Below the pieces are notes generated by a model. It was not told the origin of the DNA. It did not search any database and worked only from the letters and a program-made list of their open reading frames with translations. A stretch of DNA of 34,269 nt from an uncultured Planctomycetales bacterium (lineage in GTDB: Bacteria > Planctomycetota > Phycisphaerae > UBA1845 > PWPN01), in assembly GCA_964569525.1 (NCBI GenBank), contig CAZMVS010000138.1:1-34269 (forward strand). Reading direction: 5' to 3'. The position numbers and the translations under genes are program-made. This document shows positions 3,035-22,999 of the stretch, one piece after another. How positions within the stretch are numbered: the first letter of the stretch is position 1; every line of letters begins with the position of its first letter.

Positions 3035-3050
3035 TGCAGGAATCGTGCCA
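3035..3050 (-). promoter_or_regulatory. Sigma-54 (-24/-12) promoter candidate for the DUF5320...MinD-like cluster
   Basis: The minus strand reads TGGCACGATTCCTGCA against the consensus TGGCACG-N4-TTGCW. GG and GC have the correct spacing and there is one mismatch. It lies about 65 nt upstream of ATG 2971 and directly downstream of a sigma-54 activator gene. Confidence 0.6.
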
Positions 3051-3234: not shown

Positions 3235-4593
3235 TTATTTTGGGGGGATATCAAGCTTACGCATTTTACGCCATAGGGTGGTGCGGCTGATGCCCAATTC
3301 TCGGCTGGCGGTGACTTTGTTCCAGTGGTGGCGTTTCAGAACCGCCTCGATGGCCTGTCGTTCTGACGCAGCGAGGATGGCCCTACCGCTTTCATCGGTA
3401 TTGTGAACCGGTTGATGGGCGCTTTGGGATATTTCTTCCGGTAGATGAGCTAGATTGATGGTCGGTTCCTTGACCATGACGAATGCGTGTTCGACGGCAT
3501 GCTCCAATTCTCGAACATTGCCAGGCCAATTATAGGTAACCAAGGCCCGCATGGCTTCACCGGAAACGTTTCGGACCTGCTTTCCCATCAGTTGGTTGAA
3601 TCGTTCGATAAAATGTTCGACCAATAGGGGAATATCTTCCGTACGTTCCCGTAGTGGTGGCAAGCTCAATCGTACGGTATTCAGACGATAAAAGAGGTCC
3701 TGCCGAAAACTTCCTTCCTCCACCAAGGCTCGTAAATTGCGATGAGTTGCAGCAAGTACCCGGGCATCGGTGGTTCGGGTGGTGCTTGATCCAACCGGTT
3801 CGAAAGCCCCTTCCTGGAGAACTCGCAAGAGCTTGACCTGCATCATGGGCGAGGTATCGCCGATTTCGTCCAAGAAGATGGTTCCGCCATGGGCCAGTTC
3901 AAAGCGGCCCTTGCGGTCCGCGCGGGCATCTGTAAACGCGCCGGCAACGTGGCCGAAAAGCTCTGATTCCAGCAGTGAATCAGGCAGGGCACCGCAATTG
4001 ACCTTCACAAAAGGCCCTTCGTGGCGGAGGCTTTCATTGTGAATGGCCCGGGCTAATAAGTCCTTGCCGGTCCCGGTTTCTCCTTCAATGAGTACTCCCG
4101 CATTGCTGGTCGCGATATCGGGGACCAGGGCGAAGATTTCCTGCATGCGGTGGTTTTTACTGAGTAGGTCGTGGAGCGAATACCGCCGGCGCATTTCACG
4201 CCGCAATCCTTCCACTGCGGTTAAATCGCGGAAGGTTTCCACGCCCCCGATCGCGTTGCCCGACTGATCATGCAGAACCGCAGTGGACACACTGATGGGA
4301 ATTTCCTCATTCCGGCGGTTGAGGATGGTGATCTCCAGGCCGGAAATCCTTCGTTCGGTACGCAGGGACTCATCAAGCAGGCAGCCGCCTTGGCAGACTG
4401 AGGAGCGAAAGATGTTGTAGCATTTTTGACCGATGGCTTCTTCAGCGGTGAAACCGGTGATTCGTTCCGCCGCCCGGTTGAAGCTGGTGATGACAAAATC
4501 CCGATCCACAGTAAAAACACCGTCAGCGATGGAATCCAGGATGGTAGCTACCTGTTCAGGTTCCAAGGTTGTTTTCGATGTTTGCGAAGCCAT
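3235..4593 (-). CDS. Sigma-54-dependent transcriptional activator (PAS sensor + AAA+ + Fis-type HTH)
   Basis: 452 aa with an N-terminal PAS-like region (ILDSIADGVFTVDRDFVITSFNRAAERITGF). Walker A is GETGTGKDLLA, the GAFTGA variant is GAFTDA, and IFLDEIGD is present. C-terminal HTH is ELGISRTTLWRKMRKL. Confidence 0.9.
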   Translation of the reverse strand: MASQTSKTTLEPEQVATILDSIADGVFTVDRDFVITSFNRAAERITGFTAEEAIGQKCYNIFRSSVCQGGCLLDESLRTERRISGLEITILNRRNEEIPISVSTAVLHDQSGNAIGGVETFRDLTAVEGLRREMRRRYSLHDLLSKNHRMQEIFALVPDIATSNAGVLIEGETGTGKDLLARAIHNESLRHEGPFVKVNCGALPDSLLESELFGHVAGAFTDARADRKGRFELAHGGTIFLDEIGDTSPMMQVKLLRVLQEGAFEPVGSSTTRTTDARVLAATHRNLRALVEEGSFRQDLFYRLNTVRLSLPPLRERTEDIPLLVEHFIERFNQLMGKQVRNVSGEAMRALVTYNWPGNVRELEHAVEHAFVMVKEPTINLAHLPEEISQSAHQPVHNTDESGRAILAASERQAIEAVLKRHHWNKVTASRELGISRTTLWRKMRKLDIPPK

Positions 4594-4842: not shown

Positions 4843-5712
4843 ATGCGGATTGATTTGGAAAAAATTCGCCGAGAGAAACCTCTCCCGGACTTGTTGCAAT
4901 TTGCCTTGGTGAATATCAACAAGCCAAGCGGTCCGACTTCGTTCAAGGTCTCACAGGCGGTTCGCAAAATTCTCGGGCTGAAAAAGGGAGCCCACATGGG
5001 CACGCTTGATCCGGCGGTGACGGGGGTGCTGCCGGTGACTTTAGGTCGTGCTTGTCGGTTGGCGGAGTATTTCATGCATCGGGATAAATCCTACACGGGT
5101 ATCATGCGGCTGCACGGAGAGTTGACGGAGGAGGTGCTGTGGGAGGAAATGCAAAAATTTGTGGGCCGAATAACTCAGATTCCACCCCGCCGCTCGGCGG
5201 TTAAAAGAGCACCCCGGCAACGGGAAGTGAAGCGTTTCGAGCTGCTCGAAAAAAATGAGAGAGACGTGCTGTTTGTGGCGGAAGTCGAAGCGGGCACCTA
5301 TATCCGGACTTTGGTTCATGATCTTGGTCAAAAAACATGTGGTGCGCACATGCTCAAGTTGCATCGAACCAAGGCAGGTATTTTCGACGAATCCACCATG
5401 TGGGAATTTGATGAATTCCTTCAGCGTGTGGAGCGATATGAAAAAGGGGATGAAAAAGCGATTCGAGAGCTCCTGATTCCGGCGGAAATTGTTTCAACTT
5501 TATTACCTGTGGCATATGTGAAAGAAAATTCCGTTCAGAAGGCGTATTTTGGTCAGCCTTTAAGACAGGACGACTATGTCGAACTCCCTGATTTGGAAGA
5601 AAATACCCGTTTCTGCCTTTTCCATGGAGATACTTTCATCGCGGTGCAACGAAAAGTTATCCAAGACGATATTGTCGGGAAGTATGAATTTGTATTGACG
5701 CAGAATGTTTAA
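4843..5712 (+). CDS. truB: Pseudouridine synthase of the TruB family, archaeal/eukaryotic Cbf5-like subtype with a C-terminal PUA-like region
   Basis: 289 aa with NINKPSGPTSFKV, GTLDPAVTGVLPVTLGRA (catalytic Asp), KSYTGIMRLHG, IPPRRSAVKR, VEAGTYIRTLVHDLG and GAHMLKLHRTKAG. These blocks track archaeal Cbf5 as I remember it much more closely than E. coli-type TruB. Confidence 0.85.
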   Translation: MRIDLEKIRREKPLPDLLQFALVNINKPSGPTSFKVSQAVRKILGLKKGAHMGTLDPAVTGVLPVTLGRACRLAEYFMHRDKSYTGIMRLHGELTEEVLWEEMQKFVGRITQIPPRRSAVKRAPRQREVKRFELLEKNERDVLFVAEVEAGTYIRTLVHDLGQKTCGAHMLKLHRTKAGIFDESTMWEFDEFLQRVERYEKGDEKAIRELLIPAEIVSTLLPVAYVKENSVQKAYFGQPLRQDDYVELPDLEENTRFCLFHGDTFIAVQRKVIQDDIVGKYEFVLTQNV

Positions 5713-6806
5713 TTTTGGACGCTGTCCAGCATTCGCTGCAGGGCGATCCGAGCGTCATTTTTGGTTTGTTCATCTACGGTGATGCGGTTAACCATTCGGC
5801 CGGCGGCTAGTTCGTCCAGGCACCATAACAAGTGTGGCGTATCAATACGGAACATGGTGGTGCACAGACATTGGGGCCCACCTAACAGCTGAACTTTTTT
5901 CTGCCCCTCATACTGTTGCACCAGCCGATGTACCAGATTGATCTCCGTGCCAATTACCCAACTGGAACCTTCAGGGGCTTGCTCCAACGTTTTTATGATT
6001 TTTTCCGTGCTTCCGGTGAGGTCCGACTTCTGGACCACCTCCCAGTTGCATTCGGGGTGCACGATGATCTTGCAGCTAGGATCCATTCGGCGGGCCAGGT
6101 CGCAGTCTTCGGGGCGAAAGTATTGGTGCACGCTGCAGTGGCCTTTCCACAAGATGAATTTGGCGGAACGAAATTGTTCGTCGTTCAGGTCGTTATCGTC
6201 CGGGCCATAGAGAGCCATTGAATTCAGTGGATAGCCCATGGCGTAGGCGGTATTGCGGCCCAGATGTTGGTCGGGCAGGAATAAAATCTTGTCGCCTTGT
6301 CCCAGTGCCCATTCAAGGATCTGCCAAGCATTCCCGCTGGTGCAACAGGCCCCATCATGCCGGCCGCAGAAGGCTTTTATTTCCGCGAGACTGTTGACAT
6401 AAGTAATAGGAATGATTTTGTCGTTGTTGATATCGGTCAGGTAATCCCATGCCTCTTCCACCTGATTGAGGGTGGCCATGTCCGCCATTGTGCAGCCGGC
6501 GGAAAGGTCCGGCAGGATGACCGCCACTTTGTCTTCGGTCAAAATATCCGCTGATTCGGCCATGAATTCCACGCCGCAAAAGACCACGAATTCCGCTTGT
6601 TGTTGCTCGGCGGCCAATCGACTGAGCTTCAAGCTGTCTCCCGTTAAATCGGCGAACTGAATGATCTCGTCGCGTTGGTAATGATGTCCCAATATTAATA
6701 GGCGATCCCCGAAATTTCGCTTGTGCTCCCAGATGCGGGCCTCAATTTGCACGGGACTGAGCCGCCGATATTTATCCGGTAACGTTTGTTGAAAAACCAT
6801 GTTCAT
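5709..6806 (-). CDS. nadA: Quinolinate synthase
   Basis: 365 aa with ILGHHYQRDEIIQFAD..GDSLKLS, VFCGVEFMAESA, CTMADM, HPEC and CLCTTMFRI, the typical NadA blocks and Fe-S cysteines. Confidence 0.9.
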   Translation of the reverse strand: MNMVFQQTLPDKYRRLSPVQIEARIWEHKRNFGDRLLILGHHYQRDEIIQFADLTGDSLKLSRLAAEQQQAEFVVFCGVEFMAESADILTEDKVAVILPDLSAGCTMADMATLNQVEEAWDYLTDINNDKIIPITYVNSLAEIKAFCGRHDGACCTSGNAWQILEWALGQGDKILFLPDQHLGRNTAYAMGYPLNSMALYGPDDNDLNDEQFRSAKFILWKGHCSVHQYFRPEDCDLARRMDPSCKIIVHPECNWEVVQKSDLTGSTEKIIKTLEQAPEGSSWVIGTEINLVHRLVQQYEGQKKVQLLGGPQCLCTTMFRIDTPHLLWCLDELAAGRMVNRITVDEQTKNDARIALQRMLDSVQN

Positions 6807-7027: not shown

Positions 7028-7612
7028 TCAGGCGGGGGCGGTGACCAGGCGGGTCCGTGTGAGTTCCACGGTTACCGGATCGGTATCGTCTTCCGGGACA
7101 AACCTGTTTTCTTGTCTCGTAAGTTGGGTCTGGAAGGTTTGTTGGCCGGATGGAAATTCCATCGTCAGTTCAAGATCTAATTGGCCTCGATCCGGTTCAT
7201 ATTCGAGAATGCGCGCGTTGAGTAACCGGGCGTCTTGTGCGGGCGATTCCACGCCGAAAGGGGACAAAATAATTTGGGAATCGTCGAGCAGGAGATTCAA
7301 AGGGATAGTTTGTGGTGGACAATCGGCTTGTGCAGGCCAGATCTGGACGGCACCGATCCAGAGGCCGTCCAAAGGTTGATCCTCCGATTCCTCGTCCTCG
7401 GAATCCTGGTCGGGGACCAAGGCAAGGGGCAAACATAACCGGGACTTCTTGCCAGGCAGATAGTCGAGAAATTCACGAAGGGCGAGCAAGGAAATGGGCA
7501 AGGCTACCAGAACCCAACGGTAATCGCCGAGAGAGGCAGGTGCGAGAAGCGTATAAAGGGCAGCAAAAATCAGGATAAATGCCAGGATCAAGAAAAGCAG
7601 CAATTTACGCAT
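7028..7612 (-). CDS. Small membrane protein (two N-terminal TM helices, acidic linker, about 120-aa beta-rich C-terminal domain), function unknown
   Basis: I prefer the ATG at 7612..7610 (MRKLLLFLILAFILIFAALY...) over the track start at 7654. This ATG sits inside the last 8 nt of the giant upstream gene (ATGCGTAA), the classic arrangement for coupling. Confidence 0.55.
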   Translation of the reverse strand: MRKLLLFLILAFILIFAALYTLLAPASLGDYRWVLVALPISLLALREFLDYLPGKKSRLCLPLALVPDQDSEDEESEDQPLDGLWIGAVQIWPAQADCPPQTIPLNLLLDDSQIILSPFGVESPAQDARLLNARILEYEPDRGQLDLELTMEFPSGQQTFQTQLTRQENRFVPEDDTDPVTVELTRTRLVTAPA

Positions 7613-10600
7613 CAGGGGAGACCTCCACAGCGGTAAGCTGAGCCCGGTTATCATCAGCCCTGTCTGTACATCGGTGATTTATCGGGGAATCCGGGTTTGA
7701 TTGTTGCTCCGTCTCGCTTTGGTTTAGAGATTGAACGGCTTGTACGGCGCGTTGGGCAACACTTGCCGCTTTCGATGCCGGCTTGTTTTCTGCAGGTATT
7801 CTTTTTTGATCGTCGTATTTCTGAATAGTATTAACTTGGGTTTGTTGAGATTGCACCTGGCGACCAAGATCCCGCCGGAGAGTGGCGAGTTTTTTGGCGG
7901 CGGCTTCGGCGAGCACCCGCTCACGCAAAGCAGCTTTCCCTGCGGCCTCCGTGTCCCGGCGTGCTTGTTCGAGTGTTTGTAATTGTTCGTCCAGGTGGCC
8001 GGATAACTGCTGACCTCGATTTACCAGTCCTTCCAGGGTACCGAGACGTTGATCGGCCTGTTGGAGGCATTCATTTAATTCATCTGTATGTTTGCAGCTC
8101 TTTTGAGTGGTGAATTCCGCGTTTTGGCGGGCATGGTTTAATTCACAGCAGGCGTTTTGCGATTGCTCCAGTTGTTCACGAAGGATGTGCAGTTGATTGG
8201 CGGTTTTCTGATCCAGTTCTGTGGCTTCTTGTACACGTTCCGTTACTTTAGCTGAGGTGTTTTCCAGCGCGCGGCGGACCTGTTCACCTTGTTGGGTTGA
8301 TGCTTTCAAAGGATCTGCCAACGATTCCGCCAGCCGGTTGGCTTGGGTAAGTTTCTGGTGTTGTTGATTAACTTTCTCAAGAAGTTGATGAAATTGATCC
8401 TGCTTGTGATCCAGATCTTTCAGGATTGACGATTGGCAGAGTTGTTCGGCCTGTTTTTGCCGGTTGGTCAGTTGATCGCTGACGCCCTGGGCTTGCTCAA
8501 GATAGTTTTCCAGTAGGTGGATTTGCTGTTCGGATCGGCCGGTGTATTCTTCCGTCGCGTTTTGGGCCTGCTGGATGCAAACTTCCAGATTTTGTCGTTG
8601 TTTGTCCGCTTGGCTGTGCAAGTGCTGGGTGGATGATTCCAGCTGGGTAAATTGCTGTGCCGCAGTTTGAGTATGTTCCTTCAGCCGATGAATAAGTCCG
8701 TCGGTGGCGGATTGGGCTTCGCCAATTTTGTTTTCCAGCTGGCGGCCCTGTCGCAAGGAGGCCATGTTCAGCTCGCGGATGGATTCTTCGGCCTTTTTGA
8801 GACGGTGATCGAAATTCTCTTTCTTTTCATCTATCTCGATACAGAGCCTGTTGATCCCCTCGTCCGCGTGACTGATCATATCCCTAAGACTTTGAATTCG
8901 GTGTTCGGCAATCTCGCCGAGTTGGTTCTTGGTTTGATCGGCGCGCTCAATGTCGGCTTGTAATTGTTGTTGGCGGTCATCCAGGCGAATGGATAAATCA
9001 TCCGCTACCGAGCGAGCTTGCTCGACGTGTTGTTGGAGGAAAACCGCCTGTTTTTGCATATCTTCATTTAACTGCTGGGAGGCGGCATCGGCGGAATTGA
9101 TAATGTTGCCAAGTTCACCGATTCGCTGTTCGGCTTTTTGAGATAGTTGTTCAAGTTCGGTGAGCTGGGCGGCGCTGATGTCAGTCTGTTGTGTCAGGAC
9201 CTTTTGTAGTTGGTCCGACCGGCTAATGATTGATTCGAGGTCTTGTTTGGAATTTTCAGCCTCGGCGAGCTTGTCCGTGCAATTTTGCAGACACTGATGA
9301 GCTTCATCATGAAGGGCATTTTTTTCAGTGCGATGTTTTTTGTATATCTCCTGCAACGCTGCGTATTTCTCGGAAGCCTCAATGAGAGTTCGGTCAAGGT
9401 GGTCGTGGAGTTGGGCGGCTTGGGCGGACGATAGATTGATCTTATGGCTGATCGTTTCCATGGATTCAATCGCCTGGTGCGCCTTTTCGCACCGGCCAGT
9501 CAACTGTTTTAACAATTCGTCGAGTTGTTCACGTTTATTTTCGAGTTCTTTGATGGAATTTGGCCCGCAGCAGGTCTGAGCCCTCTGGTAAACATCGTCC
9601 AGCTGTTGCATGACCGTCCGGGCTTCTTCGAACACCTGGGACAAATTCTGCTGATGTTGCACAGCCTGGCTGGCCAGCTTTTTGGTAAAGGCCTGGCCGG
9701 CTTCGATTCGAGAATCGATGCCGCGGGTGTGATTTTGGATTAGTTCGGCAGCCTGATTGACCGCCTTATCCGCTTCTTGAATTCGCTCGGTAAGTGAAGC
9801 GGAGTTACGTTCGGCTTGCTCATCGAGCTGACGGGAAGCGTCGCTCACTTCCTGGAGTTTATTGTCCAGATGTTCCTGGTGTTGACGCATTTGTCCAACG
9901 ATACGCTGTGCGAGCAAATCTGCACGGTCGGCTTGTTCATGCAAGGAATGTTGCTGCTGTTGGACCTCGGCGGTTACCTGGTCGGTTACTAATCTTGCCT
10001 CGCGGAACAACTCTTGCAAAGCAGAGGATTGCTCTTCAATTTGATCGGTTAATTTGCCTGCTTGATGAATCTGGCCGCTGGCGGATTGGTTGCTTTGATC
10101 CAGTTCTTGGCGAATTTGCTCTGCGCGTTTGGACAAGTCACCCAGCCGTTCAACCTGTTGTTGCAGTTCAGTAAATCGTTGTTCGAGATTGTTGCTCCAC
10201 TGCCCATAAAGAATTTCATCCTGCGAGGCCTGTTGTCGCCAGTGGTCCCAACGCTTTTCCAATTCCTGGAATTGGTCTTGAATTTCTGAGGAGCAACGTT
10301 GGAGTTGTTCTTCGGTTGTAGTAGTTTTTTCTCGAAGATGAGTGAGCGAGTCTTCCACCTTATAGGCCTCTTCCACTCGGCTTTGTAAGTCTGTGGTCAC
10401 CTGTTGGGCTTGGGCGTTTTGGTCGGCCAGGACGGTGGATTGTTTTTCCGCCTGCTGGGTTGTTGCACAGAGCGTGTTTTGTTGTGTGGCGGCCTCCTGA
10501 ATCTCGGTTCGCAGTTCACCTTGCAGACGATTTGCATCTGTCATTAAAGATCGAAGTTGTTGGCCTGTCTCCGACAAGGCTTGGCTTTGCTGTTTACTTT

Positions 10601-13580
10601 CCTCAATTGCGGAGAAAAGATCGCTTAACCGATGTTCGGCATCGGCGCTCATCTCCACCAAGGCCTGATGCTTGTTGTCGCCTTTTTGAAGCGTGTCAGC
10701 CATTTGTTCACGAAGCGTTTTGGTCAATTCCAGGGCGGCGCTCAGACTGTCACATTGACCGGCCGCTTGTTCGACTAGCGATTCCAGTTTTTCACTATTG
10801 CTCTGCAGATTTTGAAAACGATCAGGGTGGCAGGCCTCTTGCGCAAGTTGATAAAGTTCGTTTAACTGAGAGGTGGCGAATTGGGCTTCCTCGATTTGCG
10901 AGGCCAACGCCTGTTGCTGCTCGCTGATACGATTTAGCAGTCTATGTGAATTATCGTTGACTGCCTCCATTTGCGAATCAAGCTGACCGGTCCAATCTTC
11001 TAGGTGTTCCTTCGATTTTTGATTAATTTGTTGTGTTTCATTAATCCGGTTTTGCAGATGTTCGGCCTGTTCCTTAACTTGTCCACCCAGTTCTCTGGCA
11101 GTAGACTCGGCGGCGGCGATACGCTCATTAAGCACATGAGATTGCTGCTCAATACGCTCGATAAGCTGCTCAGCTTTTCGCAGATCGACGTTTAATTCAT
11201 CATGTCTTTCCGTTGAGGCGGTTAAGGTTAACTGGACCTGATTCTGGACTTCATTCAGTTGGGTGATGGTGGATTCGCAATTACAAACAGCATCATTCAG
11301 GGCGTTTAGCTGTTGCTCGCTAAATTGATTGCTGTTTTTTAGTTGGTTAAGTTGCCCTTTGGAAAGTGACAAAGTCGATTGCGCGGAATCATGAGCTTCC
11401 TGTAGCTTGGAGATTAACGCTTCACATTCATCAGCACTCTTGTATAAAGTTTCCAGCCGTTGGTCAGTGGACTGGATTTGACCGGACAAGGTATCCGATT
11501 TTTGATCAGCGTCAGATAAATACGAATAGGCTTGGTTTTGGGCTTCTCGGATTTGAAGAATAACCGCCTGCGAGTTCTGCATCGCCTCGCGCAATGAATT
11601 GAGTTGTTCTTCAATTCGGCAGGCCAACTCCTGAGTTCGCGTGGATTGTTCGCAGGCAGTGGTGATGCTGGAACGGAGGCTTTCGTCCGTTTGTTGGCCC
11701 TGCTCAATGGAGGTTTGTACTTGTTGGTGGACCTGCTCAGCCTGGGCGGTGGCCGAGGACAGCTTTTGCAATTGCTCGGCAGCTTGACTCAAAATCTCCG
11801 ACTGTTTTCGCTCGATTTGTTCCACTGAGCGGTTAGCCTGTTCAATGCTGCCGGTCAGCGAAGCAGTGCAGCTCTGCCCTTTTTCAAGAAGCTTCTTAAG
11901 TTGGCAAATACAGTCATCGCCTTGCTCGAGGTTGTCTTGGATCCTGGCAGTTTCACGACGGAGCTGTTCGGTGTAATCGTCCGTTTCTTTTAGCTTTTGG
12001 CGCATTTCCTGCAGACTGGCTTCTTTGTGATGGGTTATCTGCTCGGTCGTCTGCGAAGCCCGCCTAACGCATTCTCGGAGTTCCGCTTGGGCATCACGAC
12101 TTGTGTCGCGTGAGTCTTCCCCTGCTTGGCGAAGCGCCTGTAAATGTTGTTCGATGTTGGTAATATTCTGAGTGAATTTTTTGTCCAGCTCTGCTGTTCG
12201 CTGATCCAGATCGGAAAGAAGTTGTGCTGCGTTGTTTTTCAATCCTGCCAGTCGTTCGGTAGTAGCCTGAGCTTCCTGCACCACTGCGGCAGCCTGTTTT
12301 TGGGAGTCTTGGAGTTCTTCGGATTTTTGGCGCAGATCGGTGAATTGATGGTCAGCTGCCGACTGGGCCTGCTTTTGCGCCTGGGCAAGCTGGTCATTTG
12401 TTTTGCCGGCTTCTTCGAGCAATTCATGGATTTGCCTGCGGGTAGCTTGGGCCAGCGAAGTGATTTCCCGCTTGGTGTGTTGCAGCTCTTCACCAAGCCT
12501 GGATATCTGCCCGAGTTTCCGGTCGATGTCTTCACTACCGCGATGGGCTTGGCGGTTGGCTTCTTCCAAGCGGCTGGCAGTCTCCCCCCCGCGCCGACTC
12601 GCATCGTCGATTTTCTGAATGGCCAAACGACTGGTCAAATCAATTTCAGCGACCGCTTGTTGTGTTAACGGTGCATAGGGGAAGTTTTGGGGGCCGCCCT
12701 GTAAATGGTTCAGCCCATTGTTCCTTTTTTCTCCCCATTCTAAAGTATTTTGATCTTCCGAATCCGACAACTGAACAGCCATCATGTCTTTGATACAGTT
12801 TGCTACCAGATTCCGATCGATCTGGCGGCGGTCGGCACTATACGCAGCCAACAAAACATTGTCCGCTATCTGGTTAATCGAACGCGGCAAACCCTGGCTC
12901 CGCTCGTGGATCAGGTCTATGGCTTCGGCAGTGAACAAATCGTTGTTATTACAGCCGGCGATCTGCAGACGGTGGCGGATGTAGTTACGCGTCTGATCAG
13001 GTTGGAAAGACTTTAATTCGCAGGAGCAAAACACGCGCTGACGCAGATGAAGCATTTGTGGAAGTTGAAGTTTATGAGCCAGCTCCGGTTGGCCAAGCAG
13101 GACAATCTGCAGCAGCTTGGCGGAGTCTTTTTCGAGATTGGTTAACATGCGCGCGTGTTCGAGCGCGTCTTTATTAAGCGATTGAGCCTCATCGATAACG
13201 GCCACTACGGGCCTGTTATCTACTACGCGCCCCTCGAGGAAGCGACGGATCCGATCGAAAAGCTCGCCGGTTGTATGCGAATGGCGGGAACGGATATTCA
13301 ATTCCCGGCAAAGCGTGATCAGCAAATCGTGTCCGTCGGCCGGTGTGTGGGCAATGGAAACGACATCTGCATCGCTACCTAGTGAGCGGGTCAGCATTAA
13401 ACCCAGAAGAGTCTTACCGGTGCCCGATTGCCCCGTAACAACGGTTATCCCTCGTCGTTGACTAATCCCATAGATTAGCGAGGCTAAAGCTTCTTCGTGA
13501 TCATCCGTCTTGAAGAAAAACCGGGGATCAGCGGTGTTTACAAAAGGCATGCATTGGAAGTTGAAGTACTCTCGGTACAT
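7605..13580 (-). CDS. Giant (1991 aa) protein: N-terminal ExeA/GspA-like AAA ATPase (AAA_22 type) fused to about 1700 aa of Q/E-rich coiled coil
   Basis: N-terminus is MYREYFNFQCMPFVNTADPRFFF...VVTGQSGTGKT (Walker A near 13410..13433), with VAVIDEAQSL (Walker B), LLGQPEL and GLPRSINQIADN, which match the ExeA/MshM-type layout. The remainder is an uninterrupted heptad-like Q/E/L/A-rich sequence. Strong AAGGAAGG SD upstream. Confidence 0.85.
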   Translation of the reverse strand: MYREYFNFQCMPFVNTADPRFFFKTDDHEEALASLIYGISQRRGITVVTGQSGTGKTLLGLMLTRSLGSDADVVSIAHTPADGHDLLITLCRELNIRSRHSHTTGELFDRIRRFLEGRVVDNRPVVAVIDEAQSLNKDALEHARMLTNLEKDSAKLLQIVLLGQPELAHKLQLPQMLHLRQRVFCSCELKSFQPDQTRNYIRHRLQIAGCNNNDLFTAEAIDLIHERSQGLPRSINQIADNVLLAAYSADRRQIDRNLVANCIKDMMAVQLSDSEDQNTLEWGEKRNNGLNHLQGGPQNFPYAPLTQQAVAEIDLTSRLAIQKIDDASRRGGETASRLEEANRQAHRGSEDIDRKLGQISRLGEELQHTKREITSLAQATRRQIHELLEEAGKTNDQLAQAQKQAQSAADHQFTDLRQKSEELQDSQKQAAAVVQEAQATTERLAGLKNNAAQLLSDLDQRTAELDKKFTQNITNIEQHLQALRQAGEDSRDTSRDAQAELRECVRRASQTTEQITHHKEASLQEMRQKLKETDDYTEQLRRETARIQDNLEQGDDCICQLKKLLEKGQSCTASLTGSIEQANRSVEQIERKQSEILSQAAEQLQKLSSATAQAEQVHQQVQTSIEQGQQTDESLRSSITTACEQSTRTQELACRIEEQLNSLREAMQNSQAVILQIREAQNQAYSYLSDADQKSDTLSGQIQSTDQRLETLYKSADECEALISKLQEAHDSAQSTLSLSKGQLNQLKNSNQFSEQQLNALNDAVCNCESTITQLNEVQNQVQLTLTASTERHDELNVDLRKAEQLIERIEQQSHVLNERIAAAESTARELGGQVKEQAEHLQNRINETQQINQKSKEHLEDWTGQLDSQMEAVNDNSHRLLNRISEQQQALASQIEEAQFATSQLNELYQLAQEACHPDRFQNLQSNSEKLESLVEQAAGQCDSLSAALELTKTLREQMADTLQKGDNKHQALVEMSADAEHRLSDLFSAIEESKQQSQALSETGQQLRSLMTDANRLQGELRTEIQEAATQQNTLCATTQQAEKQSTVLADQNAQAQQVTTDLQSRVEEAYKVEDSLTHLREKTTTTEEQLQRCSSEIQDQFQELEKRWDHWRQQASQDEILYGQWSNNLEQRFTELQQQVERLGDLSKRAEQIRQELDQSNQSASGQIHQAGKLTDQIEEQSSALQELFREARLVTDQVTAEVQQQQHSLHEQADRADLLAQRIVGQMRQHQEHLDNKLQEVSDASRQLDEQAERNSASLTERIQEADKAVNQAAELIQNHTRGIDSRIEAGQAFTKKLASQAVQHQQNLSQVFEEARTVMQQLDDVYQRAQTCCGPNSIKELENKREQLDELLKQLTGRCEKAHQAIESMETISHKINLSSAQAAQLHDHLDRTLIEASEKYAALQEIYKKHRTEKNALHDEAHQCLQNCTDKLAEAENSKQDLESIISRSDQLQKVLTQQTDISAAQLTELEQLSQKAEQRIGELGNIINSADAASQQLNEDMQKQAVFLQQHVEQARSVADDLSIRLDDRQQQLQADIERADQTKNQLGEIAEHRIQSLRDMISHADEGINRLCIEIDEKKENFDHRLKKAEESIRELNMASLRQGRQLENKIGEAQSATDGLIHRLKEHTQTAAQQFTQLESSTQHLHSQADKQRQNLEVCIQQAQNATEEYTGRSEQQIHLLENYLEQAQGVSDQLTNRQKQAEQLCQSSILKDLDHKQDQFHQLLEKVNQQHQKLTQANRLAESLADPLKASTQQGEQVRRALENTSAKVTERVQEATELDQKTANQLHILREQLEQSQNACCELNHARQNAEFTTQKSCKHTDELNECLQQADQRLGTLEGLVNRGQQLSGHLDEQLQTLEQARRDTEAAGKAALRERVLAEAAAKKLATLRRDLGRQVQSQQTQVNTIQKYDDQKRIPAENKPASKAASVAQRAVQAVQSLNQSETEQQSNPDSPINHRCTDRADDNRAQLTAVEVSPDA

Positions 13581-13885
13581 ATCTGCCTTCCTTTTTTTGC
13601 TGTTTGAGGACCGATATATTGATTGATCATCGGTTATTAAAGGGGGGGACCGAAGTTATTAGACCTTTTAAAACATGGCTCATATAGTGAGGGCGGATGG
13701 AAGCTACCCGAAGGCCCGATAAAATCAGCCATTTCAAGGACATTCCCATGATCGGCTGAACACTTTATAATGTGCACCAAGACATCTGTGGTAAATAGTT
13801 CGGCTGGGCGGTTATAGTCCATGTTTAGTTGGCCACGTAAACGCCGTCCCGAGCAAGTCCTATAAATCATGAAGGGAGAGTTCCG

Positions 13886-15548: not shown

Positions 15549-15983
15549 TCAAGGGCTTCTCATTCTGCAAGCTGGTCTTGCGACTAAAAAGAAATCCCTT
15601 TAAATCCCTTAAAAATAATAACTTATCAATCATAAGGAAGGAGGATGGCGGGAACATCCGGTTTTGATGACAAAGTGACGTATTAGAAACCTTTTAGCCT
15701 ACCTTTCATGGACAGATTGGCTTGTCGCCGCAAACGACGTGATTTTCTTGTTTTCGTCAGATTAATTTTTATGCAGTCTACTGTTATTTGGTGGGGGATA
15801 AGGGAGATTGTACTAAAGGCAACTCCTGGTCTCATTTATGGGCCTCATAAATCACTATAAATAAGAATGTTACGTGAATATGACCGCTTTGTGTGGTACT
15901 CGTGAATGGTTTATTTGCCCAACTGCCCAGCGATTGAAAAGGACATGAGAACTTTTTGGTCCATTTTTTTTCAGAATTTTTCT

Positions 15984-15999
15984 TGGCATTTGGCTTGCA
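15984..15999 (+). promoter_or_regulatory. Sigma-54 (-24/-12) promoter candidate upstream of the cytochrome c peroxidase gene
   Basis: TGGCATTTGGCTTGCA against TGGCACG-N4-TTGCW. The TGGCA and TTGCA cores are perfect and correctly spaced. It lies about 120 nt upstream of ATG 16118. Confidence 0.55.
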
Positions 16000-16117
16000 A
16001 CCTAAAAAGATCGAACGAGAAGGTCTTGCGCAGATAAGCTTATGCAGTAAATGTCGTATATGTACTTTATGCCTCACGGCGACAACCCACCAGTATATCT
16101 CCGAAGGAGAACCAGTC

Positions 16118-17554
16118 ATGTTCAATTGGCTTAAGCGAAATAAGGTATGGGGCGGCTTACCGATTGCGGCTCTGTGTGTTGTTGCGGTGGGTTTGGTTGT
16201 TGCGGCCGAGAAGCAGGAATCAACCATGATGATGAAAAAGTCGGCTGGCGGCCAGACGTATATGAAGGTCGTTATTGAAAAGACCACCGAGCAAATTATG
16301 AAGGAAGATCAGGTGGAAAAGCCCGCGGTGATGCGTCGCCAGCAGGAATTGCTCGAAAGGCGGTATGACCTGAGCGACAATCCATCTGACGTCATGATGT
16401 CGGCGGGGCGCAAACCTGTTCAAAAAGGTGTGCGCGTAAAACTGCCGGAGGGTGTGACTTGGGAAGACTTGTCAAACATGACCCCTGCAGAGATTAAGGA
16501 AAAGGATCTGTTTCCGATGGGATTTCGGCCGCTGCCTCACGTCAAACACGCTGTTGGCGGCCAGGTGTTTCCGGATACCCAGATTGAAGCGATTCGTGAG
16601 GCGGAAGGCCGCGAGCTGAAACGTTTTGATGTAGAGTTCGATTTGCCTGACCACCTGTTACCGGAATATCCCCCCCCGATATTTTTGACAACTCGGCCCG
16701 ACTTGGGCGATGTATCACAAGGTAAAACGCTGACAATCAAGAATTATTACGACCTCATGAAAGGCATCCTGACTCCGGTGCAGATGGAAGGATTGCGGCT
16801 TTTGTTAACGCCTTTCCCACAGCAACAGTTCAACCAGACGGAGGACCGCAAGGTCGAAGAACCCAGTCTGGGTGTAACCTGCCTTGATTGTCACGCAAAC
16901 GGACACACGAACGCCGCCTTCCATTTAAATCCGGATACCCGCCCACAGAATCATCGAATGCGTCTGGATACGGTGAGTTTGCGGGGAATGTATAACCAGC
17001 AGATTCATGGTTCGAAACGATCGCTACGTTCGATCGAGGATTTCACGGAATTCGAACAGCGCAGCGCTTACTTTGATGGCGACCATGTTATTGCCGCGAA
17101 GAAAGGTGTGCATTTGCCGGACCGGGCCAGCCAGGTAGCCATGATGGCCCAGATGCAGAACATTTTTGATTTCCCACCGGCGCCGAAATTGGATGAATAC
17201 GGCAAGCTGATTCCGGCCAAGGCGACGGAAATGGAAATGCTGGGCCAAGAAGTTTTCTTTGGCAAGGGAGGATGTGCCGCCTGCCATCCGGCACCGAGTT
17301 ATCTGAATAACGAGATGAATGATCTGCACCTGGGACGTTTTTACAAGCCTGAAATGATCAGCGATCATTACAGTATTCCGGATGGGCCTATCAAGACTTT
17401 CACGCTTCGAGGGATTAAGGATTCACCGCCATATCATCATGACGGTCGGTTGATGACTCTCGAGGACACAGTAGAGTTTTTCAACTTGGTCATGCAGTTA
17501 AATCTTACCGAAAAGGAGAAGGAGGCTCTGGTCCACTTTATGCGATGCCTCTAA
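16118..17554 (+). CDS. Di-haem cytochrome c peroxidase/MauG-family protein with an N-terminal membrane anchor
   Basis: Two CxxCH motifs (CLDCH, CAACH) and PPYHHDGRLMTLEDTVEFFN, the conserved CCP C-terminal block. The start is moved to ATG 16118 (MFNWLKRNK..., GAAGGAGA SD) because the track's TTG start at 15956 would cover the promoter-like element. Confidence 0.8.
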   Translation: MFNWLKRNKVWGGLPIAALCVVAVGLVVAAEKQESTMMMKKSAGGQTYMKVVIEKTTEQIMKEDQVEKPAVMRRQQELLERRYDLSDNPSDVMMSAGRKPVQKGVRVKLPEGVTWEDLSNMTPAEIKEKDLFPMGFRPLPHVKHAVGGQVFPDTQIEAIREAEGRELKRFDVEFDLPDHLLPEYPPPIFLTTRPDLGDVSQGKTLTIKNYYDLMKGILTPVQMEGLRLLLTPFPQQQFNQTEDRKVEEPSLGVTCLDCHANGHTNAAFHLNPDTRPQNHRMRLDTVSLRGMYNQQIHGSKRSLRSIEDFTEFEQRSAYFDGDHVIAAKKGVHLPDRASQVAMMAQMQNIFDFPPAPKLDEYGKLIPAKATEMEMLGQEVFFGKGGCAACHPAPSYLNNEMNDLHLGRFYKPEMISDHYSIPDGPIKTFTLRGIKDSPPYHHDGRLMTLEDTVEFFNLVMQLNLTEKEKEALVHFMRCL

Positions 17555-18607: not shown

Positions 18608-18952
18608 ATGAGTGCGGATAAATTGGCTGACAAAAAATGCGTACCTTGTAGCGGAGGTATTCCGCCGTTGAAAGGCGATGCTTTGGTCCAGATGCACAAG
18701 CAAGTTCATTCAGATTGGCAGGTGATCGACGAGCATCACCTTGTTCGGGTATTAAAATTCAACGATTTTGCCGAAGCCTTGGACTTTACCAATCAGATTG
18801 GCCGGTTGGCTGAAGAAGAGGGCCATCACCCGGATATTCTACTTTCCTATGGTCAGGTAAAGGTGACTTTGCTTACGCATAAGATTGATGGTTTGAGCGA
18901 AAGCGATTTTATCCTGGCCGCCAAGATCGATCAGCTTTATGGTGGGGCATAA
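18608..18952 (+). CDS. Pterin-4a-carbinolamine dehydratase (PCD/DCoH family), copy 1
   Basis: 114 aa with FNDFAEALDFTNQIGRLAEEEGHHPDILLSYGQVKVTLLTH and an N-terminal CVPC. GGAGGTGAG SD upstream. Confidence 0.85.
   Translation: MSADKLADKKCVPCSGGIPPLKGDALVQMHKQVHSDWQVIDEHHLVRVLKFNDFAEALDFTNQIGRLAEEEGHHPDILLSYGQVKVTLLTHKIDGLSESDFILAAKIDQLYGGA
18904..18931 (+). repeat. 28-nt stretch identical to 19875..19902
   Basis: cgattttatcctggccgccaagatcgat occurs in both PCD paralogues and encodes DFILAAKID. Confidence 0.95.
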
Positions 18953-19023: not shown

Positions 19024-19473
19024 ATGAAACATGCATTTATAATATTGTCAGGTATCCTCCTGGTTATATTGCCGGCAGGTTGTGGTGTGATCGGTACTTT
19101 TTTGGATGTTTTCCAGCCGAATGAAACGACGGTAAACTTGGTGAACAATGCCGATTATCCGGTCAGGGTGTTGCTGTATTATGACGACGAACAGGATGCC
19201 CCTGAGGAATTTATAAAAGAGTTCGGAACCGAGCGGCAAATTACCATTGAGGCGGGTGCGCAACAAAGCTTTTCTCGCGACTGTGAAGAATTGCAAGCCA
19301 TTTTCATCGAAAATGCCGAGCTGCGCATTATAGGGGAAATCGGCCCAGAGGCGGCGACCGGCGTCCATCGCGACGGCGAGGATTTCAATTGTGGCGATAC
19401 GATCAATTTTACCTTTGACCATTCGGCTATACTTACAGACTTTGATGTAATAGTGGAAGTTGTCAACGGGTAA
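19024..19473 (+). CDS. Lipoprotein, function unknown
   Basis: 149 aa with the signal peptide plus lipobox MKHAFIILSGILLVILPAGC. Confidence 0.6.
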   Translation: MKHAFIILSGILLVILPAGCGVIGTFLDVFQPNETTVNLVNNADYPVRVLLYYDDEQDAPEEFIKEFGTERQITIEAGAQQSFSRDCEELQAIFIENAELRIIGEIGPEAATGVHRDGEDFNCGDTINFTFDHSAILTDFDVIVEVVNG

Positions 19474-19578: not shown

Positions 19579-19914
19579 ATGAATACCGGAAATTTATCTG
19601 CAAACCAATGTACGCCATATACCGGGGGAGTTCCGCCGTTGCGGGGGGATGCGCTGGAAATGGTGCGTTGCCAGTTGGGCAAAGACTGGCAGGCCGTCAA
19701 CGAACATCACTTGGAAAAAGAGTTTACCTTTGATGATTTTGCCCAAGCCTTGGAGTTCACCAACAAAGTTGGGCAGCTGGCGGAGCAACAAAAGCATCAT
19801 CCCGATATCAAGCTTTCCTATGGCAAAGTTTTAATTCGGCTATGGACGCGCGCGGTAAATGGTATGACGGATAACGATTTTATCCTGGCCGCCAAGATCG
19901 ATGAATTAGAATAA
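19579..19914 (+). CDS. Pterin-4a-carbinolamine dehydratase (PCD/DCoH family), copy 2
   Basis: 111 aa with FDDFAQALEFTNKVGQLAEQQKHHPDIKLSYGKVLIRLWT. Roughly half the residues are identical to copy 1 by eye. The N-terminal CxxC is degenerated to CTPY. Confidence 0.85.
   Translation: MNTGNLSANQCTPYTGGVPPLRGDALEMVRCQLGKDWQAVNEHHLEKEFTFDDFAQALEFTNKVGQLAEQQKHHPDIKLSYGKVLIRLWTRAVNGMTDNDFILAAKIDELE
19875..19902 (+). repeat. 28-nt stretch identical to 18904..18931
   Basis: See 18904..18931. Confidence 0.95.
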
Positions 19915-20010: not shown

Positions 20011-21081
20011 CTAGATAATTCGGCTTTGCTTTTCGTCCACCATGCGAGTATCTGCCTGAATCCATGATCTAAAAATGTCAGCCAATCTGCCGCTTGAAAT
20101 TGGCGTAGCACCTTGCAAAAGTTGCATTTCGATTTTTTTATAAAAACGAGCTATTCTGTCGAGGCCCTCAATATCCAACCGGCGGTACAGCTCCGAGGTC
20201 AGCCGGACAATGCGCTCGGGTTGTTTTTGCTTCCAGAATTTTTTCAACAATTCGAACCATGCAGGCGCATGTTCGATGGGGCGGTCCGACAATGCATCTG
20301 TGTTTATAATGGTAATAGGCTGACCGGCAATTAGTCGCTGCAAGTTAGCCGGTTTTTCCGGCAGCCAGGTTACCTGCATTTGTCTTTGAGGCGAGTAATT
20401 TAAACCACAGGAGGCGGCGACTTGGGGGCGGATTTTTGCAGGCAACGCTAGCAAGGCCCATTGCAGTATATCGCGTGGATCATTTACTCCGATGATTAAC
20501 AGGGACTCACCTGCCAGCAGAAGATCCGCCAGTGACCAAATTGCCTCCGACATTATTCCGCTCGGCAAGTTACATTTTTCCGCCGGATCGATATCATATT
20601 CCGCGTCTTGTCCGCAAATGGAAAAAGGCTCGAAATATCTTTGTGGTTTGAGCAGTGGGCCCTGGTGGTTGATATGCGTATTAAGCAAGCGCCACAAGGC
20701 CAACGGATCCTCGCCGAGGCAGCGGTAAGTTTTAGGATCCACCAGCAAGAGATGCGAATAAACCCGCTGGCCGCCGCGGGAGGTGTGCTCTCTGCCGGCA
20801 TAACAGCTGCAGATAATAATTTGTCGGCCGGTAGAGGCTTGCCAAGTGGCAAAGCCTTTCGCTTCGGAGAAGTTTGAACTCAGTCCACCATGAGAAGGCG
20901 CCCGCCGTAGGATTTCCGCTTTTTCTTCAGGCGTAACACCTGCACTAGCGGCGATGATCCGGTAGCCCTCGCCGGTCGGCGAGCGCACCGAGGTGAACAC
21001 TGCCTGGTCGGCGGAAAGAGTCGGTGATTCCTTGCGGGTTAAGATTTCCGGACACGTGATTACAGCTGATTGATCGTCCAT
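20011..21081 (-). CDS. Hypothetical protein with a GAP1-like (GTPase-associated protein) N-terminal motif
   Basis: 356 aa. The start overlaps the GTPase gene by 22 nt. The N-terminal QAVFTSVRSPTGEGYRIIAASAGVTPEEK matches the [Q-x-h-F/Y-T-S ... G-x-G-aromatic-R/Q-h-h-A-x-S-x-G-h] signature I recall for GAP1 N-terminal domains. No signal peptide. Confidence 0.75.
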   Translation of the reverse strand: MDDQSAVITCPEILTRKESPTLSADQAVFTSVRSPTGEGYRIIAASAGVTPEEKAEILRRAPSHGGLSSNFSEAKGFATWQASTGRQIIICSCYAGREHTSRGGQRVYSHLLLVDPKTYRCLGEDPLALWRLLNTHINHQGPLLKPQRYFEPFSICGQDAEYDIDPAEKCNLPSGIMSEAIWSLADLLLAGESLLIIGVNDPRDILQWALLALPAKIRPQVAASCGLNYSPQRQMQVTWLPEKPANLQRLIAGQPITIINTDALSDRPIEHAPAWFELLKKFWKQKQPERIVRLTSELYRRLDIEGLDRIARFYKKIEMQLLQGATPISSGRLADIFRSWIQADTRMVDEKQSRII

Positions 21082-21947
21082 TGGAACGGCTCCAAAATGC
21101 CCTGCAACGCGGTATGCAGGGGAATGGGAGTGACGTAATCTTCCTGGGGCGAGGCGGCGTATCCCAATCCGCCGACCACGCTGCAGGCAAAGAACTCAAT
21201 GTTTGCAAAGCGGCTTTCACACAGGTTCCACAGGCGATGCAGATTGGCTTGGGCGAATCTCCGGGGATCATCAAAGCACTCTGGGCAATAATCCGCTTTG
21301 CAAAGCACGATTGCTAAAGGCATCTTAAGGCGTTGGTTTCGCTTGGAGGCATAGAGTGAGTCGATGTAGCTGAGCATCTTCACTCCGAAAAAGTCGGGCT
21401 GCGAGGAACCATTGGCCGCCAAGGCGGCATCTACCAGCAGCATGGAACCCGCGGAACGAAGCAGCAAGTCGCGAATCACTTTGAAGGTATTAGGTGCGGA
21501 CACCTCCGCCGCCAGGGACTCGCCGGCCATGTCGGGCATCAGCAGATCAATCCATTTGGCTTTGGGCGAACGTTGGTAGATCTGGTAATAAGCCCAATAC
21601 CACTGGTTCATTTCCATGGGCGTTTTGGGCGGAAAGCAGCGGTGGGCCATGTGGCTGATCACGTTTTGCTGCAACTCGATAGAGTAAGCGCCGCGAGGGA
21701 TGGCTTCATAATTGGCCACCCGTTGGGTGAGCATGTCCAACAGGAAGCCGAGATACACCGTTTTGCCGACGTTGCTCTCACCGATAATGCTGACGATTTG
21801 CGGCTCGCGTTGCTGGGCGACGATGTCACGGGCCAACGCCATGGGTGCCCCGCACTCAATGCAGACCGCCGCGTCGGACATGTTCTTGGTGCCACAAATT
21901 AGGCAGCTTGTTCCGGTTACAGTTGCAGTTTTGGCCGGACTCACCAT
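21060..21947 (-). CDS. Zinc-ribbon-fused P-loop GTPase (TRAFAC-like)
   Basis: 295 aa. Zinc ribbon CLIC...CIEC (near 21852..21905), G1 GESNVGKT (near 21759..21782), G3 DMAGE, a G4-like LCKAD, and a possible G5 FACSVV. AAAGGAGG SD upstream. Confidence 0.8.
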   Translation of the reverse strand: MVSPAKTATVTGTSCLICGTKNMSDAAVCIECGAPMALARDIVAQQREPQIVSIIGESNVGKTVYLGFLLDMLTQRVANYEAIPRGAYSIELQQNVISHMAHRCFPPKTPMEMNQWYWAYYQIYQRSPKAKWIDLLMPDMAGESLAAEVSAPNTFKVIRDLLLRSAGSMLLVDAALAANGSSQPDFFGVKMLSYIDSLYASKRNQRLKMPLAIVLCKADYCPECFDDPRRFAQANLHRLWNLCESRFANIEFFACSVVGGLGYAASPQEDYVTPIPLHTALQGILEPFQWTINQL

Positions 21948-21959
21948 AAGCCTCCTTTA

Positions 21960-22964: not shown

Positions 22965-22999
22965 CAGGCTTTCTCCCTTCCATATTCAGCGGGTGGTTA

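Follow-up and report, generated by a model that had tools for sequence, protein, structure and literature searches.

Introduction

ATPases of the ExeA, MshM and PEP-CTERM-associated types are widespread accessory factors of bacterial envelope assembly systems and, to our knowledge, little is understood of how they act, even in model bacteria. In the gspAB locus of Escherichia coli K-12 (L089), GspA begins with an AAA_22 head and continues with a GspA_C39-like domain (PF21327) and a peptidoglycan-binding domain (PG_binding_1, PF01471), and its gene is followed by one for a small membrane protein. MshM of Aeromonas caviae is a protein of 295 amino acids (aa) that ends in a hydrophobic segment and is encoded among genes for the secretin MshL, the TPR protein MshN and the T2SSE-type ATPase MshE. 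The XrtA/PEP-CTERM system-associated ATPases are described by the family model TIGR03015, and the proteobacterial members of this type found here stand alone at about 290 aa. Here, we analyse a relative of these proteins encoded in a stretch of 34,269 nucleotides (nt) from an uncultured Planctomycetales bacterium (assembly GCA_964569525.1, contig CAZMVS010000138.1; the whole stretch is hereafter the window). The protein, of 1991 aa (hereafter, the giant), joins an ATPase head of this kind to a very long coiled coil, and its gene is followed by one for a 194-aa membrane protein (the partner). In uncultured Phycisphaerae (Planctomycetota), giant and partner make up a conserved module of two genes, the carriers of which are known here only as metagenome-assembled genomes (MAGs).

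The locus resembles each of the described systems in part. With MshM the giant shares the MYxxxFGL..PF N-terminus, the Walker motifs and the GIPRLIN motif, but it lacks the terminal hydrophobic segment and the neighbours MshL, MshN and MshE. Like gspAB, the pair combines an N-terminal AAA_22 head with a downstream gene for a small membrane protein; however, the Pfam library that shows both C-terminal domains in GspA shows neither in the giant, no type II secretion system (T2SS) gene was found among the window open reading frames (ORFs) scanned with Pfam, and no such family is common to the orthologous loci. Four of the five features that define GspA/ExeA are absent from the giant and its locus. 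The planctomycetal versions of the TIGR03015 ATPase come closest, with heads 41–47% identical to that of the giant and coiled-coil tails of their own. The exopolysaccharide (EPS) or exosortase genes that accompany TIGR03015 ATPases are, in contrast, missing from the window ORFs scanned and occur in one orthologous lineage (L002–L004) and in 58 loci of sister clades, whereas the clade of the giant has a private partner with two transmembrane (TM) helices and a private C-terminal module.

The gene pair

The two genes and their parts are listed below, each with the evidence for it.

13586–13592, minus strand: ribosome-binding site AGGAAGG of the giant gene, 5 nt upstream of its ATG at 13580 (direct sequence reading)
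7605–13580, minus strand: giant gene, 1991 aa, stop codon included (ORF list, translation, JGI contig gene call, orthologues)
12771–13580, minus strand: AAA+ head of the MshM/ExeA/TIGR03015 type, residues 1–270 (Pfam, TIGR03015, identity to MshM, invariant columns)
12396–12770, minus strand: neck, residues 271–395, consisting of a linker with Pro and Gly (271–306) and the first rod helices (BLASTP, composition)
7956–12395, minus strand: Q/E/L/A-rich alpha-helical rod, heptad-like, residues 396–1875 (composition, periodicity, self-alignment, AlphaFold)
7719–7955, minus strand: C-terminal module (C-module), residues 1876–1954 (alignment of C-termini, hidden Markov model (HMM) of the module)
7608–7718, minus strand: acidic variable tail, residues 1955–1991, predicted to be non-helical (AlphaFold predicted local distance difference test (pLDDT) about 30, no secondary structure, no conservation)
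7622–7626, minus strand: ribosome-binding site GGAGG of the partner gene, located in the final codons of the giant, 9 nt ahead of the ATG of the partner (direct sequence reading)
7028–7612, minus strand: partner gene, 194 aa (sequence, synteny of orthologues, AlphaFold pLDDT 74)

The ATG-initiated ORF of the giant had been predicted in a first-pass annotation made from the letters of the window, and it was confirmed by the ORF list, by translation and by an identical gene call in the JGI metagenome contig MLSed_10002619 (locus L005), which matches the window at 100% identity over 11,178 nt and in which the gene is likewise called as 1991 aa. Since this contig differs from the window elsewhere, through indels in nadA and truB, it represents a separate assembly, and the identical gene that it carries argues against a frameshift or a chimera, a concern raised in the same annotation that was not borne out. 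A 2265-aa orthologue (P0002) also aligns with the giant from end to end (query residues 1–1831 and 874–1880 covered). On these two grounds the ORF at 7605–13580 is real, intact and not chimeric. Its start codon is supported by the AGGAAGG site 5 nt upstream and by the N-terminus, MYxxxFxLxxMPFxNTxDPxFF, where position 1 of the giant aligns with the family consensus.

MAGs of Phycisphaerae and of other Planctomycetota contain orthologues of the giant, which measure 674–2267 aa at genome loci and reach 2523 aa among database proteins. Wherever a locus of the close clade is complete and its contig runs on, the next gene downstream encodes a partner orthologue. The pair is present in the window and in loci L001/L009, L011, L002–4, L006–8/L015, L013, L014, L016 and L018, the giants at pair loci having 674, 980, 1063, 1121, 1235, 1812, 1991, 2265 and 2267 aa. 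The partner orthologues are 34–66% identical, and the spacing of the two genes ranges from a short start/stop overlap to a gap of 28 nt. One lineage, with a giant of 1140 aa and a partner of 211 aa, is found repeatedly in anaerobic digesters, on at least 22 contigs. An all-against-all comparison of the flanking ORFs returned giant and partner as the sole gene families common to these loci. In the window the partner ATG (7612) overlaps the stop codon of the giant by 8 nt (ATGCGTAA), and the second gene is predicted to be translationally coupled to the first.

All orthologues of the partner clade keep the head and neck at one end and the C-module at the other, and the rod between them varies about five-fold in length. 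Two apparently functional ends joined by a spacer of freely varying length look like the anatomy of a tether, a ruler or a scaffold. Neither the partner nor the C-module was mentioned in the first-pass annotation, and the public annotation reads 'AAA family ATPase' for the giant and 'hypothetical protein' for the partner.

Scans for sigma-70 promoters and for terminators in the window gave results at chance level. Proteobacterial PEP-CTERM genes would lead one to expect a sigma-54 promoter before the giant gene, but this was rejected: none is present in 13581–13885, and the window-wide counts are at chance. The differences between the window and L005 consist of a 72-nt indel in nadA (window about 6363–6435; 365 aa versus 341 aa) and an indel of about 17 nt in truB (within window 4843–5712), a gene that is split into two ORFs in the JGI contig. 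They reflect either population variation or a difference in assembly.

The ATPase head

The N-terminal domain had been assigned to the ExeA/MshM type on the basis of four motifs, GQSGTGKT, VIDEAQSL, LLGQPEL and GLPRSIN, all of which were found in the translation, at residues 50–57, 127–134, 161–167 and 230–236, respectively. Profile searches agree with the assignment. Pfam AAA_22 matches residues 41–171 (E-value 1.3e-23), and residues 1–266 match the entire 269-position TIGR03015 profile (E-value 5e-68 to 5e-70). A tblastn search of plasmid records with the head gave 104 matching records, the best being MshM of A. caviae (L090 6001–6888; 39% identity over 265 residues, E-value 2e-39). Further plasmid matches, at 33–37% identity, are stand-alone ATPases of about 290 aa in EPS clusters, for example in Rhodovulum, and are annotated as 'ExeA / AAA family / XrtA-PEP-CTERM ATPase'. 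GspA of E. coli K-12 was not significant against the head by BLASTP (E-value 0.73).

On TIGR03015 the giant scores 230–236 bits and misses the curated cutoff (324.5 bits). Planctomycetal ATPases inside genuine PEP-CTERM-type loci (258–270 bits) and Aeromonas MshM (233 bits) also fall short, so that the cutoff leaves out the entire phylum and the giant cannot be told from MshM by this score. The nearest curated relative of the head is the branch that holds the XrtA/PEP-CTERM-associated ATPase and MshM.

The head contains a Walker A motif (G50–T57), a Walker B motif (D130–E131), Q181/R182 and R233. A 17-member family alignment shows no variation at K56 of Walker A, D130 of Walker B, Q181 or R233, and hardly any at R182. 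Because the Walker and other catalytic residues are conserved, the head looks catalytically competent. The closest solved structure by sequence is the AAA_22 chain 'ATP-dependent target DNA activator B' of 8xvb (E-value 1.5e-7), which we take to be MuB of phage Mu. MuB polymerises with ATP.

Neck, rod and C-terminal module

Beyond the head, no Pfam domain was found in the giant. The highest 19-residue Kyte–Doolittle mean in the whole protein is 1.06 and is located in the P-loop region, so the giant has no TM segment. The hydrophobicity and Pfam scans thus agree with the earlier statement that the head is followed by neither a TM segment nor a peptidoglycan-binding domain. The neck is conserved within the partner clade, in which BLASTP alignments reach residues 350–396 and head and neck together are 44–50% identical.

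The rod (residues 331–1900) is composed of 15.4% Q, 11.0% E, 11.2% L, 10.3% A and 0.2% P. Its hydrophobic residues recur with a period of 3.56 residues (3.48–3.58 in local windows), at a power of 5.8–9.1 against at most 1.7 in shuffled sequences. Three prolines are present, at residues 919, 1340 and 1757, with spacings of 421 and 417 residues, and the best self-alignment of the rod is found at an offset of 421. Self-matches obtained without composition correction are mostly compositional, and the offset of about 421 alone stands out from them. Together, the proline spacings and this offset suggest that the rod carries an ancient duplication of about 420 residues. The only family matches of the rod are to coiled-coil stretches of SMC, Rad50, LmuB and JetC, and these fall far below the cutoffs.

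An AlphaFold model of residues 792–1991, built from a 7-sequence alignment and of low confidence (pLDDT 56), consists of 11 helices of 32–157 residues, mostly in the range of 50–160, separated by breaks of 2–14 residues. Residues 793–1911 are helical in this model except for the short breaks, and no structure is predicted after residue 1911. The first-pass annotation had described an uninterrupted Q/E-rich rod on the order of 200 nm in length with a non-helical tail of roughly 60 aa. The Q/E-rich composition stands, and 'uninterrupted' does not, given the three prolines and the modelled breaks. A length of about 230 nm (1570 × 0.15 nm) is reached only if all helices are collinear, and the earlier figure of about 200 nm, which holds under the same proviso, is likewise to be read as an upper bound. 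The non-helical end is also retained, with its size revised to about 80 residues (1912–1991 in the AlphaFold model), part of which belongs to the conserved C-module.

The C-module itself comprises about 80 residues near the C-terminus of the giant and is marked by the motif …RERVLAEAAxKKLxxLRR… followed by …VAxRAVxAVxSL…. Among the proteins searched, its HMM matches only members of the partner clade (proteins of 646–1991 aa, with the module 15–116 residues from the C-terminus), most of these matches being training sequences; in the remaining planctomycetal clades no such module was found. The giant combines an intact AAA+ head, a heptad rod of variable length and a clade-specific C-module in one cytoplasmic protein.

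The partner protein

The partner begins with two hydrophobic TM helices (residues 2–23 and 32–51) that are joined by a conserved loop, PAxLGDYRW. An acidic linker (about 52–82) leads into a beta-rich domain (83–191) of about 110 residues, for which AlphaFold predicts nine beta-strands (pLDDT 74). From the positive residues at the N-terminus and behind the second helix, the hairpin is predicted to have both termini on the inside (N-in/C-in), which would make the beta-domain cytoplasmic.

The partner belongs to no Pfam, NCBIfam or PADLOC family, and a Pfam scan of all 18 partner sequences returned no domain. A relationship with GspB was considered and ruled out, as hhalign against E. coli GspB gave a probability of 0.05%. 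The family is small: partner proteins form 19 clusters among 5.8 billion database proteins, and a metagenome scan with the partner profile added just 8 loci, mostly short or already found.

Family context and descent

A search with the head returned 28,833 representative proteins at an E-value of at most 0.001, of which 7,509 were at 1e-30 or below. Among the best 150 matches, 38 are longer than 1000 aa, most others have 500–700 aa, and almost none has a hydrophobic segment. In Planctomycetota, members of this ATPase family as a rule carry coiled-coil tails of 250–2200 residues, and a scan of species-representative genomes found 80 loci, nearly all in Phycisphaerae or other Planctomycetota MAGs. 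The joining of head and coiled coil, which had been annotated as a fusion, is thus usual in the phylum and not a one-off.

A rough neighbour-joining distance tree of the heads resolves three planctomycetal clades: the partner clade, a clade with proteins of about 960–1940 aa and a clade with proteins of about 510–670 aa. The partner clade is sister to the other two and, unlike them, never adjoins EPS genes. With the sister clades tailed as well, a coiled-coil tail is standard for this ATPase across the phylum. Genes for sister-clade ATPases stand divergently beside a gene for a polysaccharide export protein (TIGR03027-like) in 58 loci and for a tyrosine autokinase (TIGR03018-like) in 53, and many of these loci also contain a chain-length determinant, FemAB and glycosyltransferases. 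When compared with the XrtA/PEP-CTERM models, the sister-locus genes are below the cutoffs of TIGR03027, TIGR03018 and TIGR03007 and above those of TIGR03019 (FemAB, 283 bits) and TIGR03087 (glycosyltransferase, 397 bits). A partner-clade gene and an EPS-locus gene occur together in two MAGs (L013 with L028, and L016 with L029). The clade of the giant thus appears, from the tree and these gene contexts, to be a paralogous offshoot of the coiled-coil-tailed EPS-locus ATPases.

The layout of the sister loci (L020–L088) is itself conserved, with the export protein and the tyrosine autokinase divergently upstream of the coiled-coil-tailed ExeA-like ATPase; examples are L072 2192–3358, L051 3671–5002, L041 7887–8804 and L087 5139–5975. 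The two length classes of the sister tails (about 510–670 and 960–1940 aa) each have a C-terminal motif of their own, …RLAxQVExLLxLVE… or …QKLNEWLKE….

Proposed function and alternatives

Our preferred reading, which we hold tentatively, is that giant and partner form a membrane-anchored, ATP-gated coiled-coil scaffold or spacer for envelope export or assembly, derived from an EPS-export ATPase. We infer that the C-module contacts the partner, that the complex is located at the membrane, that association of the heads is driven by ATP and that the role lies in the envelope. The partner would anchor the C-terminal end of the rod at the cytoplasmic face of the inner membrane, and ATP-bound heads at the opposite end would associate, as in other AAA_22 proteins. 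Rod and heads anchored in this way would act as a nucleotide-gated scaffold or tether of defined reach. The module would have split, as a paralogue, from the coiled-coil-tailed ATPases of XrtA/PEP-CTERM EPS export loci in the same phylum, and an envelope-export role is favoured because of this descent. The process organised would most likely be the export or assembly of envelope polysaccharide or surface proteins, and not secretin assembly via peptidoglycan binding. In one lineage (L002 1100–9103) the exosortase EpsH, EpsI and three PEP-CTERM proteins with canonical VPEP/VPAP-TM-RRR sorting signals directly precede the pair, and in another (L006 868–2376) a PEP-CTERM LRR protein is encoded 4 kb upstream.

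Several observations weigh against the scaffold proposal. Exosortase adjacency was rejected as a clade-wide feature, being confined to one of about nine lineages (L002–L004), and no EPS, exosortase or PEP-CTERM genes were found among the window ORFs scanned. What suggests a contact between C-module and partner is their co-distribution; charge complementarity was also tried and is inconsistent, the net charge of the module ranging from −7 to +6 and the partner being always acidic. Foldseek searches of the PDB with the partner beta-domain returned weak lipocalin-like or PilZ-like beta-barrels only (best E-value 0.019, TM-score at most 0.32). The modelled geometry of the rod is of low confidence (pLDDT 56). 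Lastly, descent carries over little mechanism, since the literature found offers no established function for the TIGR03015 ATPase. The ATPase goes unmentioned in the 2006 PEP-CTERM paper, and a search of the literature found neither a description of the architecture of the giant, of the partner or of the C-module nor a function assigned to them or to the TIGR03015 ATPase.

Were the anchored scaffold correct, it would provide a handle on the cytoplasmic-side organisation of EPS and PEP-CTERM export, add an NTPase-headed class to the bacterial coiled-coil scaffolds and supply two family definitions, for the partner and the C-module, to genes now labelled 'AAA family ATPase' and 'hypothetical protein'. 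Planctomycetal heads are routinely tailed with coiled coil, which points to a structural or spacing role unseen from the short proteobacterial proteins, and one branch seems to have left the polysaccharide loci and gained a membrane adaptor of its own. Should the model be wrong, a clean, conserved two-gene module in an uncultured lineage remains.

Unlikely, and yet the most serious contender to the scaffold proposal, is a role in the cytoskeleton or in positioning, in which the giant would build filaments or long tethers that serve cell shape, division, or the tethering of chromosome or membrane, with no specific tie to polysaccharide export. Crescentin, FilP and Scy, like eukaryotic motor, long-rod and tail proteins, have heptad rods of hundreds to thousands of residues in an end-rod-end layout. 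The bacterial cytoskeletal coiled-coil proteins have no NTPase head, the head of the eukaryotic motors has a different fold, and we know of no such cytoskeletal or motor protein with a 2-TM partner of this kind. The giant fits the description through its long heptad-periodic rod, with no enzymatic domain besides the head, through its match to the presumed MuB chain of 8xvb, a protein that polymerises with ATP, and through the lack of EPS genes near it among the window ORFs scanned; the membrane partner could serve as a cortical anchor. SMC, Rad50 and MukB, as well as JetC and LmuB, likewise combine a very long coiled coil with a P-loop NTPase and give weak matches to the rod (30–75 bits). In SMC/Rad50/MukB-type proteins, however, an ABC head is split between the two ends, whereas the AAA_22 head of the giant is entirely N-terminal and no hinge was detected. 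The SMC-type profiles match internal coiled coil only, at 34–75 bits against cutoffs of 567–1087 bits. Moreover, every near relative of the head comes from an envelope system, either the MSHA pilus or an EPS/PEP-CTERM locus, and the rarity of the family, with 19 partner clusters and the 8 metagenome loci, would be unexpected for a core cytoskeleton.

A more specific version, that the pair is a previously unrecognised intracellular tether or cytoskeletal element with an ATP-assembling AAA+ head, a spacer of up to about 230 nm and a 2-TM inner-membrane adaptor, is likewise unlikely. The head would polymerise or form rings with ATP, and the length of the spacer would be species-specific. In the unusually organised cells of Phycisphaerae, this tether could serve to place membranes or the machines of the envelope.

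We consider it quite unlikely that the pair is a conflict or defence cassette in which the NTPase-coiled coil is the sensor or switch and the small TM protein a membrane-disrupting effector. The pair is self-contained, its flanking genes differ in every lineage, and a GAP1-N2/double-GTPase operon, of the kind that Pfam calls GTPase-associated systems, is about 6.4 kb away; the sister clades, however, reside in biosynthetic EPS loci and not in defence islands, and the G+C content of the giant ORF is about that of its flanks. Pfam gives weak nSTAND3 matches on the head, and in L001 a HEPN/nucleotidyltransferase pair is encoded 3 kb upstream. Against these stand the results with PADLOC-DB 2.0, in which coiled-coil matches only (LmuB, JetC, DndD) and none for head or partner were obtained, and the lack of a nuclease, protease or other effector domain. 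The partner, with an acidic linker and a folded domain predicted to be cytoplasmic, is also unlike a simple pore-forming peptide.

It is very improbable that the giant is a functional equivalent of ExeA/GspA or MshM for the assembly of an outer-membrane secretin or pilus, with the partner as GspB/ExeB. The head is of the same ATPase branch as MshM, and an ATPase with a small membrane protein is formally gspAB-like. The giant nevertheless lacks a TM segment and both domains that are evident in E. coli GspA, the partner is unrelated to GspB and has a soluble domain that is predicted to be cytoplasmic, and the orthologous loci share giant and partner only. Among the window ORFs scanned, no secretin, pilin, T2SS or type IV pilus gene was found, in agreement with the earlier statement that none lies nearby.

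There is a negligible probability that faulty assembly, a frameshift or the chimeric joining of two genes produced the ORF, as the gene is identical in a separately assembled contig, P0002 spans it end to end, head and C-module are kept at opposite ends of all orthologues and the hydrophobic periodicity is unbroken along the rod, the one odd point being that the giant was not returned as its own match by the first, word-indexed homology search, which returned the partner at 100% identity. The missing self-match is probably an effect of low-complexity words combined with a limit of 8000 candidates, and negatives from this search are to be read with care for coiled-coil queries.

Other features of the window

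The GTPase operon near the pair (20011–24732, minus strand) consists of five genes, for a GAP1-N2 protein (20011–21081), a double-GTPase protein with DO-GTPase1/2 and a possible zinc ribbon (21060–21947), an FGE-sulfatase-domain protein (21960–22964), a 340-aa coiled-coil protein (23000–24022) and a 244-aa orphan (23998–24732). It resembles the GTPase-centred systems behind these Pfam domain definitions and has no PADLOC match. The first-pass annotation had set this operon beside the giant as a second NTPase-plus-coiled-coil arrangement; it belongs to an unrelated, GAP1/double-GTPase family, and the pairing has no demonstrated meaning.

Two genes for pterin-4a-carbinolamine dehydratase are present at 18608–18952 and 19579–19914 (both plus strand; Pfam E-value about 1e-28 each), and a 149-aa ORF that belongs to no family lies between them (19024–19473). 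A sigma-54-type -24/-12 element with one mismatch to the consensus, TGGCACGATTCCTGCA, is found at 3035–3050 (minus strand), upstream of an operon for DUF5320, 4Fe-4S ferredoxin and ARMT1-like proteins (2971 down to 1052) and beside the gene of a PAS sigma-54 activator (3235–4593). Matches of this type occur at chance across the window, and only the position of this element is suggestive. Finally, a 532-aa ORF at 15956–17554 (plus strand) has an N-terminal hydrophobic segment, two CxxCH motifs (CLDCH and CAACH) and no Pfam match, and its product may be a divergent protein resembling di-haem cytochrome c peroxidases.

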